Shown: piece by piece, positions 4,605-52,590 of the stretch
Numbering within the stretch: the first letter of the stretch is position 1
Layout: each line of letters opens with the position of its first letter
Assembly: GCF_003018255.1 (NCBI RefSeq)
Contig: NZ_CP027440.1
From: Escherichia coli
GTDB taxonomy: Bacteria; Pseudomonadota; Gammaproteobacteria; Enterobacterales; Enterobacteriaceae
DNA length: 64,000 nucleotides
Reading direction: 5' to 3' (one strand)
The notes under the pieces: model-generated
Told to the model about the DNA's origin: nothing
What the model saw: only the letters and a program-made list of their open reading frames with translations
The model's database searches: none
Position numbers and translations under genes: made by a program

Positions 4605-5777
4605 TCAGGCCTTATGGTGGAAATAATCACTCAGGCGGGAAAACATGCCGCCTTCCCCGACAGATTCCAGGGTAACCAGCGGCCAGTGCGCCACCTGTTT
4701 ATCACGGTCGTAAAGTTCAATTTCCCCTACCCGCTGATGGGCGCTAATTGGCGCGGTGAGCTCTTTACCATCAAGGGTATATTTGGCTTTGATATGTGGA
4801 ATTTCGGCTTTCGGTAGCACCATCCAGAACTCTTGTTCCGTTCCCAGGTCGATATTTTCTTTATCGCCATACCAGATGCGTTCCGTTCCGACCTTTTTCC
4901 CACGGTGCAAAATTTGCACCGTAGTAAAGTTTTGTTGCCCCCAACGCAGTAATTTTCTTGCCTCTTCCTCACGACCTTTTGCACTGTCAGCCCCCATTAC
5001 CACTGCAATGAGACGACGCTGCCCATCTACAGCCGAAGCAATGAGATTAAACCCGGCACCAGAAGTATGACCCGTTTTCAGGCCGTCAACATTCATGGTT
5101 TTATCCCACAACAACCCGTTACGGTTTTGCTGGGTGATACCGTTCCAGGTGAGGCTTTTCTCACTGTACATATGATAAAACTCGGGCTCGCCGTGGATGA
5201 TAGCGCGAGAAAGCACAGCTAAATCATAAGCCGAGCTATGCTGGCCAGGTGCATCCAGACCATGCACTGTTTCAAAATGCGTATCCTTGAGATGCAGCTT
5301 CTCGGCATAGTTGTTCATCATTGCAACAAACTGCCGTTGCCCACCGGCAATATAGTCAGCCAGTGCAACACAAGCATCATTTCCGGAATCCACAATTAAA
5401 CCACGGCTTAAATCACGTACCGATACGCGATCGCCCTCTTTCAAAAACATCAGTGAAGAACCGACAAACACTGGATTATCTTTCGCCCACGCATCGCGCC
5501 CTACGGTGACAATATCGTCTGGCGTAATTCGATGACTATCGATAGCGCGATCCACGACATAACCCGTCATCAGCTTTGTCAGGCTGGCGGGATTGCGCTG
5601 TTGATGCTCATTACCCGCGGTGAGGATCTGTCCGGTGGTGTAATCCATCAATACCCAGGACCCGGCATGAATCTCTGGAGGCTGAGGTGAAAAAGGAATG
5701 TTTTCCGCCGCAAAACCAGACGATAAGTTAAAAACGAACAAAGAAGCAGCAATAATAAGACGGCGTTTCAACAGCAA
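4605..5777 (-). CDS. dacD: D-alanyl-D-alanine carboxypeptidase DacD (PBP6b)
   Basis: 390 aa ORF with signal peptide and SxxK active-site motif (ASLTKLMT), typical of class C low-molecular-weight PBPs; synteny. Confidence 0.9.
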   Translation of the reverse strand: MLLKRRLIIAASLFVFNLSSGFAAENIPFSPQPPEIHAGSWVLMDYTTGQILTAGNEHQQRNPASLTKLMTGYVVDRAIDSHRITPDDIVTVGRDAWAKDNPVFVGSSLMFLKEGDRVSVRDLSRGLIVDSGNDACVALADYIAGGQRQFVAMMNNYAEKLHLKDTHFETVHGLDAPGQHSSAYDLAVLSRAIIHGEPEFYHMYSEKSLTWNGITQQNRNGLLWDKTMNVDGLKTGHTSGAGFNLIASAVDGQRRLIAVVMGADSAKGREEEARKLLRWGQQNFTTVQILHRGKKVGTERIWYGDKENIDLGTEQEFWMVLPKAEIPHIKAKYTLDGKELTAPISAHQRVGEIELYDRDKQVAHWPLVTLESVGEGGMFSRLSDYFHHKA

Positions 5778-10080: not shown

Positions 10081-10905
10081 TTACTCCAGCGGCATTACCA
10101 GCGGATCGGGATACTGGTATTCAAATCCCAGTTCATTACAAATCCGACTGCCATCAATAATCTTACCTTTGCCGCTGTCCAGACTATTTCTGAACTGCGG
10201 AGGTTCCAGCCCCAGTAAACGGGCCATCTGCGGATAGAAAACATTACGCGCAGGGTGAGCTGGCGCACATATATTATAGATGTGTCCGCCTTTAGGTGCC
10301 TGTAACAACAGAGTGATAGCACCAATAACATCTTCTAAATGGACTAAATTAACACCATGTTCACCATCAGGGGCGGTTTTTCCGGCAAAGAAGCGTCCGG
10401 GATGACGTCCCGGTCCGACCAGCCCCGCAAGACGCAGAATATCGACCGAAGTACCGGGTAAATTGTGCAGCCAGTCTTCGAGTTCTTCTAATACTCGTCC
10501 ACTGTTGGTCACCGGATTACGCGGGGTGGTTTCTTTCACCGTGCCTTGCGCGTCGCCATAGACAGATGTTGAGCTGGTAAAAATAATTCGGGGAATACGA
10601 TGGGCCAGCGCGCTATCCACTAACTCTTGTACCGCTTGTAAATAGAACTCATCGCCGGGGCCGCTACGACGTGCCGGAAGCGTAATGACCAGCGCGTCGG
10701 CATCCATCAGGGCATCCAGATCGTCAGAATCGCAAACTAACTCAGGCTCCATGCGAAGCAGATAGCTATCAATGCCACTCATTCGGGCCGCTTCGACACC
10801 ATCTTGTGTGGTTTTACTCCCGGTGACTTGCCAGCCTCGCGCTGAAAGTGACATCGCCAGCGGCATGCCTAACCACCCTAACCCGACAATTGCGACCTTT
10901 TTCAT
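10081..10905 (-). CDS. yeeZ: NAD(P)-binding epimerase/dehydratase-like protein YeeZ
   Basis: 274 aa ORF, Rossmann motif VAIVGLGWLG; synteny upstream of hisL. Confidence 0.85.
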   Translation of the reverse strand: MKKVAIVGLGWLGMPLAMSLSARGWQVTGSKTTQDGVEAARMSGIDSYLLRMEPELVCDSDDLDALMDADALVITLPARRSGPGDEFYLQAVQELVDSALAHRIPRIIFTSSTSVYGDAQGTVKETTPRNPVTNSGRVLEELEDWLHNLPGTSVDILRLAGLVGPGRHPGRFFAGKTAPDGEHGVNLVHLEDVIGAITLLLQAPKGGHIYNICAPAHPARNVFYPQMARLLGLEPPQFRNSLDSGKGKIIDGSRICNELGFEYQYPDPLVMPLE

Positions 10906-11009
10906 CCGTTATCTCCTGATACACCTTAGATCTATAAGGCTACGCTAGCGTATCAAAACTGACAATTCATTCTATGAATGAAATCGAAACGGTTAGCAAA
11001 TATACCATT

Positions 11010-11109
11010 GCCTGATGCGCTCCGCTTATCAGCCCTACAAAAACATCAATATATTGAATTTAGGCAACATTTGTAGACCTGATAAGGCATTCACGCCGCA
11101 TCCGGCAGG
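11010..11109. repeat. REP pair (BIME-like) in the yeeZ-hisL intergenic region
   Basis: Seen in sequence: gcctgatgcgctccgcttatcagccctaca ... tgtagacctgataaggcattcacgccgcatccggcagg, the canonical E. coli REP palindromic units in inverted orientation. Confidence 0.6.
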
Positions 11110-11329
11110 AACAAAGCCCACTTTAGTTACAGAACACAATGTTCTTGAGGATTTAATGACATATTTTCACGATTACTTTTTTAACCTAGTCACTCTTAGC
11201 CCCTCCTTACCCCGCTCATTCATTAAACAAATCCATCGCCATAAAATATATAAAAAAGCCCTTGCTTTCTAACGTGAAAGTGGTTTAGGTTAAAAGACAT
11301 CAGTTGAATAAACATTCACAGAGACTTTT

Positions 11330-11380
11330 ATGACACGCGTTCAATTTAAACACCACCATCATCACCATCATCCTGACTAG
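11330..11380 (+). CDS. hisL: his operon leader peptide
   Basis: Seen in sequence: ATG ACA CGC GTT CAA TTT AAA followed by seven consecutive His codons, CCT GAC TAG (MTRVQFKHHHHHHHPD). Confidence 0.95.
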   Translation: MTRVQFKHHHHHHHPD

Positions 11381-11440
11381 TCTTTCAGGCGATGTGTGCT
11401 GGAAGACATTCAGATCTTCCAGTGGTGCATGAACGCATGA

Positions 11441-11480
11441 GAAAGCCCCCGGAAGATCACCTTCCGGGGGCTTTTTTATT
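11441..11480 (+). terminator. his attenuator terminator hairpin
   Basis: Seen in sequence: gaaaGCCCCCGGAAG-atcac-CTTCCGGGGGC-ttttttatt immediately upstream of hisG. Confidence 0.85.
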
Positions 11481-11525
11481 GCGCGATTGATAACGGTTCA
11501 GACAGGTTTAAAGAGGAATAAGAAA

Positions 11526-12425
11526 ATGACAGACAACACTCGTTTACGCATAGCTATGCAGAAATCCGGCCGTTTAAGTGATGACTCACGTGAATTGCTG
11601 GCGCGCTGTGGCATTAAAATCAATCTTCACACCCAGCGCCTGATCGCGATGGCAGAAAACATGCCGATTGATATTCTGCGCGTGCGTGACGACGACATTC
11701 CCGGTCTGGTAATGGATGGCGTGGTAGACCTTGGGATTATCGGCGAAAACGTGCTGGAAGAAGAGCTGCTTAACCGCCGCGCCCAGGGTGAAGATCCGCG
11801 CTACTTTACCTTGCGTCGTCTGGATTTCGGCGGCTGCCGCCTTTCGCTGGCAACGCCGGTTGATGAAGCCTGGGACGGCCCGCTCTCCTTAAACGGTAAA
11901 CGTATCGCCACCTCTTATCCTCACCTGCTCAAGCGTTATCTCGACCAGAAAGGCATCTCTTTTAAATCCTGCTTACTGAACGGTTCTGTTGAAGTCGCCC
12001 CGCGTGCCGGACTGGCGGATGCGATTTGCGATCTGGTTTCCACCGGTGCCACGCTGGAAGCAAACGGCCTGCGCGAAGTCGAAGTTATCTACCGCTCGAA
12101 AGCTTGCCTGATCCAACGCGATGGCGAAATGGAAGAATCCAAACAGCAGCTGATCGACAAACTGCTGACCCGTATTCAGGGCGTGATCCAGGCGCGCGAA
12201 TCAAAATACATCATGATGCACGCACCGACCCAACGTCTGGATGAAGTCATCGCCCTGCTGCCAGGTGCCGAACGCCCAACCATTCTGCCGCTGGCGGGTG
12301 ACCAACAACGCGTAGCGATGCACATGGTCAGTAGCGAAACCCTGTTCTGGGAAACGATGGAAAAACTGAAAGCGCTGGGTGCCAGTTCAATCCTGGTCCT
12401 GCCGATTGAGAAGATGATGGAGTGA
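11526..12425 (+). CDS. hisG: ATP phosphoribosyltransferase
   Basis: ORF 11487..12425; start placed at [18 protein letters not shown]; first gene after the attenuator. Confidence 0.95.
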
Positions 12426-22599: not shown

Positions 22600-22706
22600 T
22601 GTTTACTCCTGTCAGGTGGAAAACTAAATACTTTTAGAGTTAGCGTTATATTAACTGATATCATTTGATGATAGTAGATAATATTATGATAAATACTGAC
22701 TCAGTA

Positions 22707-23723
22707 TCACTCAGAATATCCATTCGGATTTTTATTTTGCCATCTCCAAGCATCAGTAATCATATCCTCAAGTGTACGCTTTGCTTCCCAATGAAGCTCT
22801 TTAATAGCTAAATCTGGTTTTGACCAACATTCAGCGATATCTCCAAGCCTTCGCTCAGAAATAACATAAGGTATTTTTATTCCGGTTATTTTTTGAAAGG
22901 CATCAATAATCTCTTTTACTGAATATCCTTTACCTGTGCCTAGGTTATAATAACGTAACCCACCGTATATATTTTGTTTTTTTAGCGCTGCAATATGACC
23001 TTCCGCTAAGTCCATAACATGTATGTAATCTCTAACTCCGGTGCCATCAACCGTAGGATAATCCCCCCCATATATGGTCAACTTCTCAAGTTTCCCAACA
23101 GCAACCTGTGTTAAATAGGGAAAAAGGTTGCTTGGTACACCATTAGGATCCTCACCAATTAAACCAGAATAATGTGCGCCTACAGGATTAAAATATCTCA
23201 AGCAAGTTGCATTAAATTTAAATTCATAATTGGTTATATCTTCAAGCATTCTTTCAACAATATATTTTGTCGTCCCATATGGATTTGTTGTTCCTCCTGT
23301 ACTGCAATTTTCGTGCACCGGAATAGCTGTAGGATTGCCATATACTGTTGCGGATGAACTAAAAATAAAATTGTAAATTTTATTTTTTAACATCGAGTCA
23401 ATTAAATGCAAAGTTCCAATAACATTATTCTCATAATACTGAATGGGTTTTTTAATTGATTCCGAAACAGATTTTAGCGCAGCAAAATGAATAACAGCCT
23501 CGATATCATTATTTGCAAACACAGAATCAATCAAGTCAATGTTGCGTATATCTCCTTCATATATAATTATTTTCTTAGAAGTCAAATACTCCACTCTTTT
23601 TAAAGCAATCTTTGAAGAGTTACTAAAATTATCAATAACAATAACATCATAGTTATGATTTAAAAGTTGCAATACTGTATGTGAACCAATATATCCTGCC
23701 CCACCAGTCACGAGAACAGCCAT
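22707..23723 (-). CDS. gne: UDP-N-acetylglucosamine / UDP-glucose 4-epimerase (GalE/Gne family)
   Basis: 338 aa short-chain dehydrogenase/reductase ORF with GGAGYIGS and YxxxK catalytic motif (YGTTK); last gene of the AT-rich O-antigen cassette next to gnd. Confidence 0.8.
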   Translation of the reverse strand: MAVLVTGGAGYIGSHTVLQLLNHNYDVIVIDNFSNSSKIALKRVEYLTSKKIIIYEGDIRNIDLIDSVFANNDIEAVIHFAALKSVSESIKKPIQYYENNVIGTLHLIDSMLKNKIYNFIFSSSATVYGNPTAIPVHENCSTGGTTNPYGTTKYIVERMLEDITNYEFKFNATCLRYFNPVGAHYSGLIGEDPNGVPSNLFPYLTQVAVGKLEKLTIYGGDYPTVDGTGVRDYIHVMDLAEGHIAALKKQNIYGGLRYYNLGTGKGYSVKEIIDAFQKITGIKIPYVISERRLGDIAECWSKPDLAIKELHWEAKRTLEDMITDAWRWQNKNPNGYSE

Positions 23724-23756
23724 ACCCTCTCCTTTAAAAACATTTTTTATAAGAAA

Positions 23757-24734
23757 CTATCTGTTTTTTACTTGATACAAGAAATGATAAACTGGAAAGA
23801 ATTTTTTAATCAACAACAAGCGAAACGCATAATACATACCAAAAGCCTGTTCGCAATTCATTTTCTGCTCTATGTTTTTCGGCAAAACTATTTTATTTTT
23901 TTTACATAAAAGGAATATATAAATCAAAAAATCATTGTATCTTTTCTTAAGATAATACTTGACCAATCTATTCTTTGTTGTTTGTATAATACATCTATAG
24001 GTTTTTAATACTTCCAGATAACCAATTATATTGCGAGAGCTAATTTTACTTGTCATTATTGAGTTTTCCCTTACCCTTCGGTAAAAATAAATCTCATCGG
24101 TACAATAACACAACTTAGAATCTAAAATAATCCTAGGTAAGTACTCTTCATCCTCATGAACTATATTTTTAAAAAATGAATTTCGCATTAATAATTCAGT
24201 TCTAAATACATTAATGCAAACAGATGAAAAGTAAGAATTGGTTGAAAATAATCTTTCTAAAAAAACATCACCAGACTTACAAATTTGAAATTTAGTTCGT
24301 TTATATGAAGGAATTTTACCTGCCAAATTAGAAGGGAGCCCTAATATTGATCCTGAAAATGCTATAATGTCTAACTCTTTATAATTAGTCAATATTTCAT
24401 TAATATCCCTTATAAACATTGGACTCAAAGCATCATCAGAGTCAAAAAAATAGACGTATGGTGTGCTAACTTTTGTCAGACCATAATTCCTAGCACTGCT
24501 TAAACCACCATTTTCTTTAGAAAATATCTTATAATTATCCTTACCCTCTATTCTTTTTTTAAGGAGAGGTATCGAATCATCACTAGAACCATCATCCACG
24601 ATGATAACTGAATGTGGTTGCATAGACTGATTTATAATAGAATCTATAGCCTCAACAATATAATCTTGGACATTGTACACAGGCATAACAATTGATATTA
24701 ATTTGGAAATCTCATTTTCTTTTTGGCAAAGCAT
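23757..24734 (-). CDS. Glycosyltransferase family 2 (O-unit glycosyltransferase)
   Basis: 325 aa ORF; N-terminal GT-A signature (ISIVMPVYN ... IIVDDGSSD); AT-rich codon usage. Confidence 0.75.
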   Translation of the reverse strand: MLCQKENEISKLISIVMPVYNVQDYIVEAIDSIINQSMQPHSVIIVDDGSSDDSIPLLKKRIEGKDNYKIFSKENGGLSSARNYGLTKVSTPYVYFFDSDDALSPMFIRDINEILTNYKELDIIAFSGSILGLPSNLAGKIPSYKRTKFQICKSGDVFLERLFSTNSYFSSVCINVFRTELLMRNSFFKNIVHEDEEYLPRIILDSKLCYCTDEIYFYRRVRENSIMTSKISSRNIIGYLEVLKTYRCIIQTTKNRLVKYYLKKRYNDFLIYIFLLCKKNKIVLPKNIEQKMNCEQAFGMYYAFRLLLIKKFFPVYHFLYQVKNR

Positions 24735-26145
24735 TGTTTAATAATCCCACAATGGTATTTTTATCAATAATAAACATAAGACAAACATAACTCCCTGCAC
24801 CTATAACGATATAATAAATCAAAGATAATAATTCCATATTATTAGATTGAGTTATAAAATTATTTTTAGCAATCAGTATCAAAATTAGCATGCAAACACT
24901 ACAAAACAAAGGTTTACATGTTATACATAAAATGTTTTTTATGTTACCTTGGAGCAATCTCATGACGTAATAAAAGCAGATGTAAAATATTAATACATTC
25001 GCACAAAGATATAACTGGCAGAATATAACGATATTGAAGCATGCCCCAATAACAAATGACATAACTTGAATTATTGCACTCACACAACCAATCCTTGCCA
25101 GCAACTTAACGTTACCTAAAGATAAAAAAACTACTCCTGTAGTGCTCGTGAGTGCTTGGATAATCCCAACAGGTGCCAACCATTTTAAAAGAAGAGCAGC
25201 ATTATCCCAATTTTTACCAAACAGAAAAAAAACTAACTCGTTACTTAACGAAGCGAGCCCAATCATGGCAGGAATTGACAAAACTGCAATGAACTTTAGC
25301 GAGTCTAAATATATTCTTTTTTTTGTTATAATATCTTTTGAATGACTTAGCTTAGGCAATAAAGCTCTATTAAATATATAAGTTATATTTTGAACTGGAA
25401 ATAACATAAGTCTATATGCTAATGCATAATTACCTAAAACATACTGCCCAAAAATTTTTCCAACTATAATATTATCAGCGTTACGTGAGAAATAATTCAC
25501 CATATTAAATGACATTACATTAACACAATAGCCAAATATTAATTTTATATATTTCATCCGCCAAGAAAATTTATATTTTCTTCTATTTTTAAGGCTCAAT
25601 AAAAAAACAACAATAACTGCATACAAAAGGGCCTGTAGAGACACAGCATAAAGTCCAAAGCCCATGGCAATTACTATAAAAACAACAATGATTGAAATCG
25701 ATAATGATATCAACTCTATGAGAGCAGTAATATTGAACTGTTGGTTTCGTTCTAATAAAGCAAAATTAAAAGCAATAAAACTTTGTAAAGGAAATGAAAA
25801 AGAGATGATCAATATTAATAGAAACAACCTTGTGTCATTGTAAAAAAGGGATATTGGATAAGCTAATAATGTCATTACGATAAAAATAACGAGACCGCTT
25901 ATAAAGTTTAATGTGTATGTGGATTTAATAAAATTTTCACTTATTCTTCTCCGTTGAATTAATATTGATGACGTCCCCATATCTCTAAAGAGCATGGCAA
26001 ATGCAGCCACTACGCTTACAATGGAAATCAAACCATAGTCATAAGGCGTTAAATAACGAGCCAGTACAAAGATCAAAACTAATTGGCTCAGAGCTCTTGC
26101 AATTTGAGATAAAGCGACCCATTTTACTCCTGTTATCAAAAGCAT
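24712..26145 (-). CDS. wzx: O-antigen flippase
   Basis: 477 aa polytopic ORF with Wzx-like N-terminus (ALSQIARALSQLVLIFVLARYLTPYDYGLISIVSV); AT-rich. Confidence 0.75.
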   Translation of the reverse strand: MLLITGVKWVALSQIARALSQLVLIFVLARYLTPYDYGLISIVSVVAAFAMLFRDMGTSSILIQRRRISENFIKSTYTLNFISGLVIFIVMTLLAYPISLFYNDTRLFLLILIISFSFPLQSFIAFNFALLERNQQFNITALIELISLSISIIVVFIVIAMGFGLYAVSLQALLYAVIVVFLLSLKNRRKYKFSWRMKYIKLIFGYCVNVMSFNMVNYFSRNADNIIVGKIFGQYVLGNYALAYRLMLFPVQNITYIFNRALLPKLSHSKDIITKKRIYLDSLKFIAVLSIPAMIGLASLSNELVFFLFGKNWDNAALLLKWLAPVGIIQALTSTTGVVFLSLGNVKLLARIGCVSAIIQVMSFVIGACFNIVIFCQLYLCANVLIFYICFYYVMRLLQGNIKNILCITCKPLFCSVCMLILILIAKNNFITQSNNMELLSLIYYIVIGAGSYVCLMFIIDKNTIVGLLNNALPKRK

Positions 26146-26152
26146 TTTATTA

Positions 26153-27100
26153 TTATCTCACTCTTTTTTTAAAATGGTTTTCATAAACTTTTTGCTTCAA
26201 ATATATAATGCCAGGGAACGCTCTTTTGAGTAGCAACTTAGTTGCAAATAATGTCCAGTATTGTTTTTTTGCTATAAAAGAAAATATAATTTTAATTTTT
26301 AAACATCTTAACATCATTAACCTAAACAGGTTATAATTCTTTGTATCATTGTACATTATATTCTTATATTTAAAATAATACTTCCGATATGCCACATAAT
26401 CTTTAATATTCTTGGTTATTCTAACACCTTCATGAGAAATATCCATATAGTAAGTATTAGCGTTTAACCTCCTGGCACTCCCATAAACTTGAATAAGTTT
26501 AGTCCAAACATCTTGATCTTGTAACCGTTTAAAATCAATAGAAAATCCTCCAACTGATAACAAACGCTCTCGCTCAACTAAAATCTGGTTACCAGCTTCA
26601 TTTTCCTTGAGTATACTTTGTAAATCAATGATACATTCTCTTTGAAATCGTGCATGATTATTTGTTCCAGTCACTATTATATAGTTATCGCAGATAAAGG
26701 AAAATTCCTTGTTATAATGATTAACCAGAATCTGTAACCTATCTTCTTTGAAATAATCATCATCATCCAACCCTGTAATGAAGAAACCTTTTGCATGCTT
26801 TAATCCTCTATTTCTAGAAAAATTAGCCCCCATATTTCTTGGGTTTTTCTTATATATAAAATTCTTAATATTTGGTGTTGCTACTTCTTGCAATTCTTTT
26901 ACAATCAAGTCAACTTCATAACTAGAGTTATCATCGACTACGATTAATTCTATTTTTGAATAAGTTTGATTAAATACTGATAATATTGCTCTGCGCAACA
27001 GCAAAGGGCGATTATAAGATGTTATAAGAACGCTTACTAATTTTTCCATTTCTTTTTCAAAACCATCAACAAAGTAATTATAACCAAAGAATAGATCCAC
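26153..27100 (-). CDS. Glycosyltransferase family 2
   Basis: 315 aa ORF; GT-A signature (VSVLITSYNRP ... IVVDDNSS). The true start may be the internal ATG near 27049, reducing the overlap with wzy. Confidence 0.7.
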   Translation of the reverse strand: MDLFFGYNYFVDGFEKEMEKLVSVLITSYNRPLLLRRAILSVFNQTYSKIELIVVDDNSSYEVDLIVKELQEVATPNIKNFIYKKNPRNMGANFSRNRGLKHAKGFFITGLDDDDYFKEDRLQILVNHYNKEFSFICDNYIIVTGTNNHARFQRECIIDLQSILKENEAGNQILVERERLLSVGGFSIDFKRLQDQDVWTKLIQVYGSARRLNANTYYMDISHEGVRITKNIKDYVAYRKYYFKYKNIMYNDTKNYNLFRLMMLRCLKIKIIFSFIAKKQYWTLFATKLLLKRAFPGIIYLKQKVYENHFKKRVR

Positions 27101-37012: not shown

Positions 37013-37595
37013 GCCTGATGCGACGCTAACGCGTCTTATCAGACCTACAAGTCCCGAGCACAGAACCGTAGGCCGGATAAGGCGTTCACGCCGCATCCGG
37101 CATTCAGTGCCTGATGCGACGCTGACGCGTCTTATCAGGCCTACAAGATCCGAGCACAGAACCGTAGGACGGATAAGGCGTTCACGCCGCATCCGGCATT
37201 CAGTGCCTGATGCGACGCTGACGCGTCTTATCAGGCCTACAAGATCCGAGCACAGAACCGTAGGACGGATAAGGCGTTCACGCCGCATCCGGCATTCAGT
37301 GCCTGATGCGACGCTGACGCGTCTTATCAGGCCTACAAGACCCGAGCACAGAGCCGTAGGACGGATAAGGCGTTTTACGCCGCATCCGGCATTCAGTGCC
37401 TGATGCGACGCTGACGCGTCTTATCAGGCCTACAAGATCCGAGCACAGAACCGTAGGCCGGATAAGGCGTTCACGCCGCATCCGGCATTCAGTGCCTGAT
37501 GCGACGCTGGCGCGTCTTATCAGGCCTACAAGATCCAAGCCCAGCCCCCCAGGACGGATAAGGCGTTTTACGCCGCATCCGGCAACCGTTGCCGG
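37013..37595. repeat. Tandem array of about six 96-97 bp BIME units (inverted REP pairs) between wcaK and wzxC
   Basis: Seen in sequence: unit gcctgatgcgacgctgacgcgtcttatcaggcctacaagatccgagcacagaaccgtaggacggataaggcgttcacgccgcatccggcattcagt begins at about 37013, 37109, 37205, 37301, 37398 and 37494 with few substitutions. Confidence 0.85.
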
Positions 37596-37611: not shown

Positions 37612-39090
37612 TCACCCCGCCCGTAAAAGCATTTTCATTTTTTCGCTGCGACAAAACTGACGCTTCACTTCCACCACCAGCGGATGGCGTGACAGCACAA
37701 TCATCACCACAAACGCCAGCACGCCTGCGGCTATTTGCACCGCCAGCAGCATCCCCAGCGCCAGTTGCCCTTTCAGCACAATGCCCAGCGCATAACTGAC
37801 CCCCAGTGTCGGCAACGAGAGATAAAACGGCAGCCACAAACTCAGGATGTACTGGCGATAACTGGAACCAAGAACCGGTTTAATCATCACGAAGTAACTC
37901 AGAATGGTGTTGATAATCTGCACCAGCAGGAAACCGAGCGTGACGCCGATTGCGCCCGCCATCTGCCCACCAATAACAATCGCCGGAATAAACAGAAATG
38001 TTTTGAATACGTTGAATTTAAAGCTGATATCGACCCGCGCTTTCGCCATCAGCAGCGAACCAATCGGGTTACCCACCGAACGCAGCAGTCCCACCACACA
38101 CAGCAATTGCAGCACCGGAATAATGCTGTTCCACTTCTCACCAAAGACCAGCGGTACAAAGTTATTCGACACCACCATCAGCCCCAGCAGCGCCGGAAAG
38201 TTGATAATCCCCACCACCGACAGCAGCTTGTAGAAGTTGACGCGCAGCTTTTCGGTGTCGTCCTGAATTTTGGCAAATGCCGGAAACAACACGCGGGTGA
38301 TGATTGGGTTCAGCTTCATCGGCGGCACAACGGCCACGTTGTACGCCAGGTTGTATCCCCCTGCCACGCCCGCGCCGAGAATACGCGCCAGCACCAGCGT
38401 TGAAAGGTTAGTGTTGAGATAGTTGATGATGCTGTCCGCCGTCAGCCAGGCACCAAAGCGTAAGTTCGGTGCCACCGACGCCAGCGAGAAATGCAGACCG
38501 GGGCGATAAATTTTGCGACCAAAGTAGCCAAACAGCAGCGTTCTCACCGCACTATTGACCAGATAACCGAGGATCGCAGTCATCGCCAGCGGCCAGAAAT
38601 GGGCGCTAACCACCGTAAAAGTGAAGCCCGCCAGCACCGCGCTGGTTTCGATCATGCCGATTTTGTTGAACTCCAGCTCCTTCTGCATCAACGCGCGGAA
38701 CTGTTGCCCGTGGGGGATTACCACAAACGCCAGCGACAATGTTTTAATCAACGGTGCCAGGTCCGGGTTGTTCAGCACGTCACCAATGAGATCACTCAAC
38801 AAAAACACCGCCACACACACCACAAGCCCCAGCCCGACGTTTAGCCAGTACAGCGTGGTGAGTTCAAGGTGGCTGATTTCTTTTCGCTGAATAATCGAGT
38901 TAGCGATACCGAAGTCAGAAAGCGTATCTGCCAGCGCGATAATCACCAGCGACACGGTAAGCAGGCCGAACTGGTGGTTGTCGATAATCCGCGCCAGCAC
39001 GGTCATCTGCACCAGCCCAAGGCCGATGATGATCACCGTGGCAATCGCCGACCACTTCGCGCCGCTGATGGTTTTTTCACGTAAGCTCAT
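37612..39090 (-). CDS. wzxC: Colanic acid repeat-unit flippase
   Basis: 492 aa polytopic ORF; synteny. Confidence 0.9.
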   Translation of the reverse strand: MSLREKTISGAKWSAIATVIIIGLGLVQMTVLARIIDNHQFGLLTVSLVIIALADTLSDFGIANSIIQRKEISHLELTTLYWLNVGLGLVVCVAVFLLSDLIGDVLNNPDLAPLIKTLSLAFVVIPHGQQFRALMQKELEFNKIGMIETSAVLAGFTFTVVSAHFWPLAMTAILGYLVNSAVRTLLFGYFGRKIYRPGLHFSLASVAPNLRFGAWLTADSIINYLNTNLSTLVLARILGAGVAGGYNLAYNVAVVPPMKLNPIITRVLFPAFAKIQDDTEKLRVNFYKLLSVVGIINFPALLGLMVVSNNFVPLVFGEKWNSIIPVLQLLCVVGLLRSVGNPIGSLLMAKARVDISFKFNVFKTFLFIPAIVIGGQMAGAIGVTLGFLLVQIINTILSYFVMIKPVLGSSYRQYILSLWLPFYLSLPTLGVSYALGIVLKGQLALGMLLAVQIAAGVLAFVVMIVLSRHPLVVEVKRQFCRSEKMKMLLRAG

Positions 39091-41911: not shown

Positions 41912-42001
41912 ATCGTTACCCTTTTTCAGGCAATAGTTGGCCCTGACCGAAGCGGCCAATTTTGTTTTTGTCGTTATTTACATCGCGGTTTCGCATTCAT
42001 T

Positions 42002-42103
<102 letters not shown>

Positions 42104-43540
42104 TTACACCCGTCCGTAGCGATCCGCGAAGCGCACCACATCATCCTCTTCGAGATAAGAGCCGGAGCGCACTTCAATTAAATCGAGCGGAATTTTCCCC
42201 GGGTTTTCCAGGCAATGCGTCGCCCCCAGCGGAATATAAATGGACTCGTTTTCACCAAGGAGTTTGATATCACCGTCGATAGTGACTTTTGCCGTTCCCG
42301 CGACCACTACCCAGTGTTCCGCGCGGTGATGGTGCATCTGTACTGACAAGCCTTCGCCCGGTTTCACGGTGATGCGTTTCACCTGGTAGCGGTCGCCCGC
42401 GTCGATAGAGTCATATTTGCCCCACGGACGATACACTTCGCGATGCACCCGATGCTCATGGCGACCATCGGCTTTGATCTGCTCGACCACTTTTTTCACA
42501 TCCTGCACCGCGTTACGGTCGGCAATCAGCACCGCATCTTTGGTCTGCACCACCACCAGATCTTTCACCCCGACGGTGGTGACCAGGCCAGATTCGGCAT
42601 ACACATAGCTGTTTTCAGTTTTGTGATTAATCACATCGCCGTGGCAAACGTTGCCCTCGGCGGTGTGGGCGCTGATCTCCCATAAAGAGGACCAGGAACC
42701 GACATCGCTCCAGCCCGCATCCATCGGCACCACAACAGCATCTGCCGTACGTTCCATGACTGCGTAATCCACCGACTCTTCCGGGCAGGCGAGAAACGCT
42801 TCTTCATCCACACGAATAAAATCGAGATCCGGATCGATGGCGCTCATCGCTTTTTCACAGGCGTCGAGAATATCCGGGCGATATTTTTTCAGTTCTTCGA
42901 GATAGCGTCCGGCGCGGAACAGAAACATACCGCTGTTCCAGTAATATTCGCCGCTTGCCACATAGGCCTGCGCGGTTTCCAGATTCGGTTTTTCGACAAA
43001 CTGCGCCACTTCAAAGGCCACCGTATCCTGCTCACCCGCAGACACTTCACCGCGACGAATATAGCCATATCCGGTTTCAGGTAGATCCGGCACAATGCCG
43101 AAGGTCACCAGCTTGCCCGCTTCGGCATACGGCATGGCATTACGCACGGCGGTGCGAAAAGCGTCTTCATCGGCAATCACATGATCCGCCGCCAGCACCA
43201 GCATTAATGGGTCGCTCTCCGGGCTATGACGTTTTGCCGCCAGCGCCGCCAGCGCAATGGCAGGTGCAGTGTTACGCCCTGCCGGTTCGAGAATAATATT
43301 CTCGGTGAGTTTGTTCAGTTGACGCAGCTGTTCCGCGACAATAAAGCGGTGCTGCTCATTGCAAATCACCACCGGGCTTTCGCACTCCACGCCGTTCAGG
43401 CGGCAGATGGTGGTTTGCAGCATGGTGAGATCGCCTTTCAGGCATAAAAACTGCTTGGGGTAAAGTACGCGGGAAAGCGGCCATAAGCGGCTACCGGAGC
43501 CACCTGCCATCACAACTGGATAGAGTTTCGACTGCGCCAT
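42104..43540 (-). CDS. cpsB: Mannose-1-phosphate guanylyltransferase
   Basis: 478 aa [27 protein letters not shown] with C-terminal cupin domain; synteny. Confidence 0.93.
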
Positions 43541-52418: not shown

Positions 52419-52481
52419 AGGTTGTTCTCCCGGAGTGTCGAGATGTTCTGCCGGTTTATAAGCTGGTTTACAGGTTCTGTT

Positions 52482-52590
<109 letters not shown>

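Follow-up and report, generated by a model that had tools for sequence, protein, structure and literature searches.

The interval between yeeZ and hisL raises a question about the direction of change at a bacterial locus. In Escherichia coli K-12 MG1655 the two genes are 867 bp apart, and the toxin-antitoxin (TA) genes yoeB (b4539) and yefM (b2017) sit between them. A preliminary description of the 64,000-nucleotide stretch of E. coli DNA analysed here (the window) had named this K-12 arrangement and reported that the module is absent from the window, with REP elements in its place. The reference does carry the pair at yeeZ-hisL, the module is indeed missing from the window, and the REPs are present. 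The direction implied by "in its place" did not survive comparison with outgroups, in which the REP-bearing spacer is ancestral and the TA pair derived. It is highly probable that the locus has two alleles in E. coli and that the window carries the one with a BIME-1 and without the TA pair, that this allele represents the ancestral Escherichia arrangement and not the product of a deletion, and that a history of three states accounts for what is seen today.

The spacer measures 424 bp (10906-11329, G+C 38%), close to the 420 bp first described, and the REP pair reported for it is found at the positions given in Table 1. The description had also placed the his promoter and leader in this interval. 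The promoter does lie inside it; the leader peptide and the attenuator lie just outside. At the yeeZ end, the motifs ACTGACAATTCAT and ATAAGGCTACGC are kept in Salmonella, Citrobacter, Enterobacter and Kluyvera, and from the promoter hexamers and their conservation we infer that the yeeZ-proximal 77 bp hold a minus-strand promoter. At the other end, the his promoter region is conserved in seven genera and identical to that of K-12. Its hexamers, TTGCTT and TAGGTT, are presumably those of the his promoter, an assignment made from established knowledge of that promoter together with direct reading. The leader peptide, which contains seven consecutive histidine residues, precedes a covariance-model match that spans the full His_leader model (1-126). 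The promoter, hisL and attenuator of the window are intact and essentially identical to those of K-12, and the predicted divergent yeeZ promoter is likewise intact. A generic scan of 10850-11560 for sigma-70 promoters and terminators was uninformative, flagging neither the known his promoter nor the attenuator; the two promoter-like sites that it did return both fall inside the BIME and, with 1.9 expected, are at chance level.

Table 1. Features of the yeeZ-hisG region of the window. Positions count from the first letter of the window.
Feature	Position	Strand	Description and basis
yeeZ	10081..10905	-	SDR-family oxidoreductase/epimerase, 274 aa; ORF list and annotation in matching E. coli genomes and K-12
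yeeZ-proximal spacer, common to both alleles	10906..10982		equals K-12 spacer positions 1-77 at 100% identity
Predicted yeeZ promoter	10937-10965	-	-35 TTGTCA (TGACAA 10960-10965), 17-nt spacer, -10 TAGCCT (AGGCTA 10937-10942)
Allele-specific 205-bp segment	10983..11187		K-12-type genomes carry the 648-bp yoeB-yefM cassette instead; breakpoints by blastn and MAFFT against K-12
z1-type REP GCCTGATGCGCTCCGCTTATCAGCCCTAC, left arm of the BIME-1	11010..11038	+	29 nt; aligns with the z1 REP of the torZ-cmoB BIME
Mechanical ORF	11015..11272	+	85 aa; not a gene; starts inside the z1 REP, crosses both REPs and runs through the his -35
Long (L-type) linker	11039..11072		34 nt; IHF-like core ATCAATATATTG at 11045-11056
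y-type REP TGCCGGATGCGGCGTGAATGCCTTATCAGGTCTAC, right arm of the BIME-1	11073..11107	-	35 nt
Escherichia-specific spacer sequence, both alleles	11188..11247		within the 97% match to K-12 spacer 726-867
his promoter region	11248..11329	+	A/T-rich tract, -35 TTGCTT 11262-11267, 18-nt spacer, -10 TAGGTT 11286-11291, 5' UTR
hisL leader peptide MTRVQFKHHHHHHHPD	11330..11380	+	ATG at 11330; annotated hisL in matching genomes
His operon leader / attenuator RNA	11356..11479	+	Rfam RF00514, 131.6 bits against a gathering score of 49, E 1.7e-23
hisG (ATP phosphoribosyltransferase)	11526..12425	+	ORF; annotation in matching genomes

Neither YefM nor YoeB can be encoded here. When the K-12 proteins were compared with the whole 64-kb window by tblastn, as the preliminary description had proposed, the best E value was ~0.3 (0.34) at an unrelated site, and the locus itself gave no meaningful match. 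Searches for a remnant were permissive, combining tblastn at word size 2 and E <= 100, blastn at word size 7, Smith-Waterman alignment with shuffled controls and Pfam in six frames. In six-frame Smith-Waterman alignments with the spacer, YefM and YoeB each scored at most 24, against shuffle means of ~29. No Pfam family matched the six frames of 10906-11330 at E <= 10, neither PF06769 nor PF02604, while the K-12 proteins used as positive controls were recovered (YoeB as YoeB_toxin PF06769, E 2.8e-43; YefM as PhdYeFM_antitox PF02604, E 6.1e-28). At the DNA level, the 205-bp segment of the window and the 648-bp segment of K-12 reach a local score of 11 against a shuffle mean of 11.1. The TGTACA core of the yefM operator, which in K-12 is repeated within TGTACAGTTCATTGTACA just upstream of yefM, does not occur in the 424-bp spacer. 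A degraded yefM or yoeB remnant in the spacer, the finding that might have overturned the earlier claim, is ruled out, all DNA and protein searches being at or below chance. Toxin domain, antitoxin domain and TGTACA operator, the three marks of a type II YefM-YoeB module, are all absent from the window locus, which encodes no YoeB mRNA interferase and no YefM repressor. This statement covers the 64-kb window, and a copy may lie elsewhere in the genome.

The only open reading frame predicted in the spacer had been described as spanning the REPs and resembling neither protein, and this holds, with no Pfam family found and alignment scores at or below those of shuffled sequence. It is uninterrupted, opens with an ATG and is near TA proteins in size, and might on these grounds be taken for a real small protein, such as another toxin or antitoxin standing in for YefM and YoeB. 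We attach practically no probability to such a role for a frame that starts within one REP, crosses the second and overruns the his -35 region. Stops or frameshifts interrupt the frame in each of the four Escherichia relatives compared (E69, E1V33, MOD1-EC7003 and E. albertii); it finds no Pfam family even at E <= 10, and no gene is annotated over it in the sampled RefSeq genomes that match the 205-bp segment. The ORF is spurious and should not be called a gene.

Alignment with K-12 resolves the locus into shared flanks and an exchanged middle. The first 77 bp of the window spacer (10906-10982) are 100% identical to K-12 and the last 142 bp (11188-11329) are 97% identical, so that the two strains have the same chromosomal slot with the same flanking sequences. 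Within this slot K-12 has 648 bp, starting 5 bp past the yoeB stop codon and ending 140 bp upstream of the yefM ATG, which carry YoeB, YefM and the TGTACA operator; the window, in contrast, has 205 unrelated bp without TGTACA. What separates the alleles is the replacement of one stretch by another, and neither a plain insertion nor a plain deletion.

The 205 bp contain the REP pair, which fits BIME-1 as defined in the literature, namely a z1 and a y REP present in a single copy and separated by a long, conserved L linker that often contains an IHF site (PMC3333891). The typing of the two arms as z1 and y is based on their length, their resemblance to other copies and known consensus sequences. 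Both align with further REP sequences of the window (27 nt at 96%, E 1e-7). The stretch that holds them is predicted to fold better than 200 of 200 shuffled sequences (z = -3.2). The linker core ATCAATATATTG agrees with WATCAANNNNTTR at 12 of 13 positions, deviating from the consensus at the first (C for W); this is one match where 0.07 are expected per shuffled spacer. The linker is also partly conserved, sharing CAATAnATTGAA-TTAG with the linker of the torZ-cmoB BIME. The element resembles BIME-1, or RIB/RIP, as described by Gilson, Bachellier, Boccard & Prentki (PMC3333891), with inverted z1 and y repeats whose CTAC ends face each other, a single copy and a 34-nt linker with an IHF-like core, and the torZ-cmoB BIME of other E. 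coli genomes has the same architecture. It differs in its setting: RIBs have been described at the 3' ends of transcription units (PMC3333891), whereas the BIME-1 of the window lies between two divergent promoters. In that position it would probably have at most a structural role, as a binding site for IHF or gyrase. A permissive Rfam search over the spacer returned nothing besides His_leader and a sub-threshold match to naRNA4 on the y REP (11076-11112; 18.7 bits against a gathering score of 59.5). As naRNA4 comes from a REP cluster, such a match is to be expected, and it is no evidence of an sRNA.

Other REP sequences of the window are arranged differently. Against the single pair in the spacer stands a tandem array of 5.9 copies with a 96-bp period at 37012-37584, between the minus-strand colanic-acid-region ORFs 35671-36951 and 37612-39090. 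Its unit, a long z2-type REP with an inverted y REP, makes it a BIME-2 array. It is probably the wcaK-wzxC REP cluster, whose copy number differs among strains (Iguchi et al. 2011, PMC3158064). Further REP pairs occupy intergenic gaps of the colanic-acid cluster at 41998-42115 and 52478-52588, positions that agree with the cpsG-cpsB and wcaA-wzc REP sites (PMC3158064).

The order in which the two alleles arose can be read from related species. A scan with the hisL coding sequence over one genome per bacterial species yielded 54 loci. In ~45 enterobacterial species, including members of Salmonella, Citrobacter, Enterobacter, Kluyvera, Kosakonia, Leclercia and others, yeeZ and hisL are 158-175 bp apart, and neither the TA pair nor the 205-bp segment was found in these compact spacers. 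An expanded spacer appeared in four Escherichia genomes, three of them non-coli; the 54 loci included none from E. fergusonii, Shigella or the GTDB E. coli type genome. All four, namely E. albertii, Escherichia sp. E1V33, Escherichia sp. MOD1-EC7003 and E. coli E69, have a REP-bearing spacer of 422-423 bp that is collinear with that of the window over its whole length, at 93% mean column identity overall and 88-97% identity in the 205-bp segment; the TA pair is absent from each of these spacers. Since the outgroups have a REP-bearing spacer without the TA pair, the window allele is read as ancestral in Escherichia and the K-12 cassette as a later replacement. Alignment with the compact genera puts the Escherichia gain at ~265 bp (window ~10983-11247). 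The last 60 bp of this gain, 11188-11247, are gapped in all the non-Escherichia genera aligned (Salmonella, Citrobacter, Enterobacter and Kluyvera) and are retained in K-12 beside the cassette, which argues that the cassette entered an already expanded spacer.

A secondary loss, in which this lineage once had yefM-yoeB at the locus, deleted it, and had the gap colonised later by a REP pair, would suit the frequent loss of TA modules and the mobility of REP/BIME elements, and the presence of the pair in 78% of E. coli makes its absence look like a minority state. Such a loss is nevertheless very improbable. The whole 205 bp, including ~80 bp that are not REP, have collinear orthologues in E. 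albertii and in two further non-coli Escherichia species without the TA pair; no DNA or protein remnant can be detected in the spacer; and a deletion followed by regain of this very sequence at unchanged breakpoints would be a much less parsimonious course.

We therefore favour ancestry over loss, in a succession of three states. The first would be the compact spacer of 158-175 bp still found in most Enterobacteriaceae, with the yeeZ promoter region directly next to the his promoter. In the second, an ancestor of Escherichia would have acquired ~265 bp including the BIME-1. In the third, within one E. coli lineage, 205 bp (10983-11187) would have been swapped for the 648-bp cassette, probably once.

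In the soil E. coli strain MEI4BO-21 (NZ_CM149565.1 1833986-1842420) the yeeZ-his region is Kluyvera-like, not E. coli-like: relative to the window, YeeZ is 82% and hisG DNA 85% identical, and the compact 175-bp spacer hardly differs from the one in Kluyvera georgiana. Its yeeY is missing, and plaP and tsuA are annotated as usual. The region is probably a replacement from another genus beside the O-antigen locus.

Absence of the module is not unusual in E. coli. When a match over at least 80% of its length was counted, the 205-bp segment was present in 1,196 of the 5,426 complete genomes (22%) at 95-99% identity, with O157:H7, BL21 and ETEC O6:H16 among the carriers. The K-12 TA cassette occurs in 4,212 of them (78%) at 95-100% identity, and always on the chromosome. 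The two counts sum to 5,408, so the alleles are essentially mutually exclusive, with ~18 genomes having another arrangement or nothing. The variant of the 205 bp found in the window is rarer, being 99% identical to that of one genome (DETEC-S792) and 95-97% identical to all others. In a separate observation, E. coli HH97 (NZ_CP116409.1 2161582-2161829) gives a partial match to the cassette, over 43% of the query at 76.8% identity and with no annotated feature beneath, which may be a diverged or decayed yefM-yoeB-like copy.

The cassette itself appears to have a single origin. The TA alleles of K-12, AVS0465 and O111:H8, which are up to ~4.6% diverged, have identical left and right junctions, and the sampled TA-bearing loci all span 1,543-1,545 bp. 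Because diverged alleles share both junctions and span lengths, a single insertion with later spread by recombination is suggested; three aligned junctions and the span lengths, read without a phylogeny, indicate that the cassette probably arose once. From this one event the cassette allele would then have spread through homologous recombination to reach ~78% of complete genomes.

A plasmid is the most likely source. Sequences with 83-86% nucleotide identity to the yefM-yoeB of K-12 are found on large plasmids (130-170 kb) of Salmonella Milwaukee, Citrobacter sp. TSA-1 and Escherichia marmotae (NZ_CP030176.1, NZ_CP030177.1, NZ_CP053574.1 and NZ_CP025980.1), and this level of identity points to a related pool and not to the donor. 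The plasmid matches run from the yoeB stop codon to 64 bp upstream of the yefM ATG, that is, over the promoter/operator and the two ORFs. These limits fit the published minimal transferable TA unit, TA modules being transferred as cassettes of promoter and ORFs without a terminator (PMC5120126). No plasmid match extends beyond position 572 of the K-12 cassette into its promoter-distal 76 bp, which are also the most variable part of the cassette among TA-bearing alleles. The unit that entered would accordingly be made up of yoeB, yefM, the yefM promoter/operator and 76 bp without a plasmid counterpart. Three further records labelled as plasmids, at 96-99% identity and 0.39-4.8 Mb in length, look like mislabelled chromosomal sequence.

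The junctions offer some hints as to how the cassette entered. At the right junction in K-12 (4845-4865 of the K-12 locus, L001) a perfect 10-nt inverted repeat, CTAAGAGGAC-A-GTCCTCTTAG, lies across the breakpoint. Its right arm belongs to the ancestral spacer (AGTCACTCTTAG in the window, 11188-11199) and its left arm to the cassette, and in diverged TA alleles the perfectly conserved core is 7 nt long (AGAGGAC / GTCCTCT). The repeat could be insertion microhomology, or chance. On the left, the BIME-1 insert of Escherichia and the TA cassette have a common breakpoint at ~10982/10983, 17 bp from the predicted yeeZ -35. The spacer might accordingly be imagined as a recurrent, promoter-bounded integration slot in which capture of the TA pair was mediated by REP/BIME sequences, for instance by way of breakage tied to a REP-associated transposase, to gyrase or to IHF, and was not a random illegitimate event, with the 7-10 nt inverted repeat as its trace. 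We regard this reading as quite improbable.

How both alleles have persisted is a related matter. Selection may keep both, for instance if the TA pair serves in anti-addiction or phage defence in some niches. The alternative is neutral hitch-hiking with exchange of the O-antigen cluster. For selection it can be said that both alleles are old, the TA segment being 95-100% and the REP segment 95-99% identical across genomes, and that both occur in unrelated lineages. K-12 and BL21, which both belong to phylogroup A, differ at the locus. The related cassettes on large plasmids would also fit an anti-addiction role. Several points weigh on the other side. The locus lies ~11 kb from the O-antigen cluster, the flanks of which are known recombination junctions (PMC3158064); the one other genome of the O185 family that was checked has the REP allele, which fits linkage; and published work cited in PMC7167474 found that yefM-yoeB had no influence on fitness at 42 degrees C. 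Maintenance of both alleles by selection is, on balance, unlikely.

The O-antigen cluster of the window (22650-30700) is of the O185 family, its wzx and wzy being annotated as O185, and such a cluster was found in six of the 5,426 complete E. coli genomes at 98.5-98.8% identity. The only one of these checked, MB06172, has a TA-free yeeZ-hisL spacer of 426 bp. Within window positions 1-25000, the closest complete E. coli genomes share only 97.3-98.1% identity with the window over ~23 kb, and the collection contains no near-identical genome. Several matches, including those to O185 genomes, begin only at ~1860-1980, an indication that the window has a variable segment at its left end.

For the strain, the ancestral, TA-free allele has modest consequences. 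YoeB-dependent mRNA cleavage is not to be expected from the window locus, and this matters little beyond correct annotation. In K-12, yeeZ is likely to be co-transcribed with yefM-yoeB (PMC5120126); in the window allele it would receive no read-through from the yefM promoter, to judge from the sequence. The wider value of the locus is as a clean and datable case in which a plasmid-type TA cassette, comprising a promoter and two ORFs without a terminator, was caught between divergent core promoters and then spread by recombination beside the O-antigen hot spot. Chromosomal TA modules have been regarded in the literature as accessory, horizontally acquired DNA, and the locus fits this view; reviews describe the TA modules of E. 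coli as accessory genes that differ between phylogroups (PMC7167474).

The TA-free, REP-bearing junction is already known and is a common strain difference. Iguchi et al. (2011, PLoS One) found no yoeB/yefM between yeeZ and hisL in O157:H7 Sakai, listed yeeZ-hisL among the intergenic regions that contain REPs, and compared the region across strains in a figure panel (PMC3158064). A 2023 survey likewise reported that, among the major sequence types studied, the YoeB toxin is absent specifically from ST11 (PMC10790755). The junction of the window resembles that of Sakai in lacking yoeB/yefM and in having REPs in the spacer, and O157:H7 genomes match the 205 bp over 100% of their length at 96.6% identity; it differs in that the window variant is diverged and lies beside an O-antigen cluster of the O185 family, not of O157. 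What we add to this picture, namely a direction based on outgroups, a three-state history and frequencies in 5,426 genomes, refines it and is not a discovery. A further point of comparison is ccdO157, which Mine et al. are said to have placed in 2009 between folA and apaH as a chromosomal type II TA system of some E. coli only (cited in PMC7167474). It represents another TA family at another locus, and decay has been documented there, whereas no decayed copy was seen at the window locus. What the two loci share is the intergenic insertion of a TA pair and its polymorphism, as presence or absence, within a single species.
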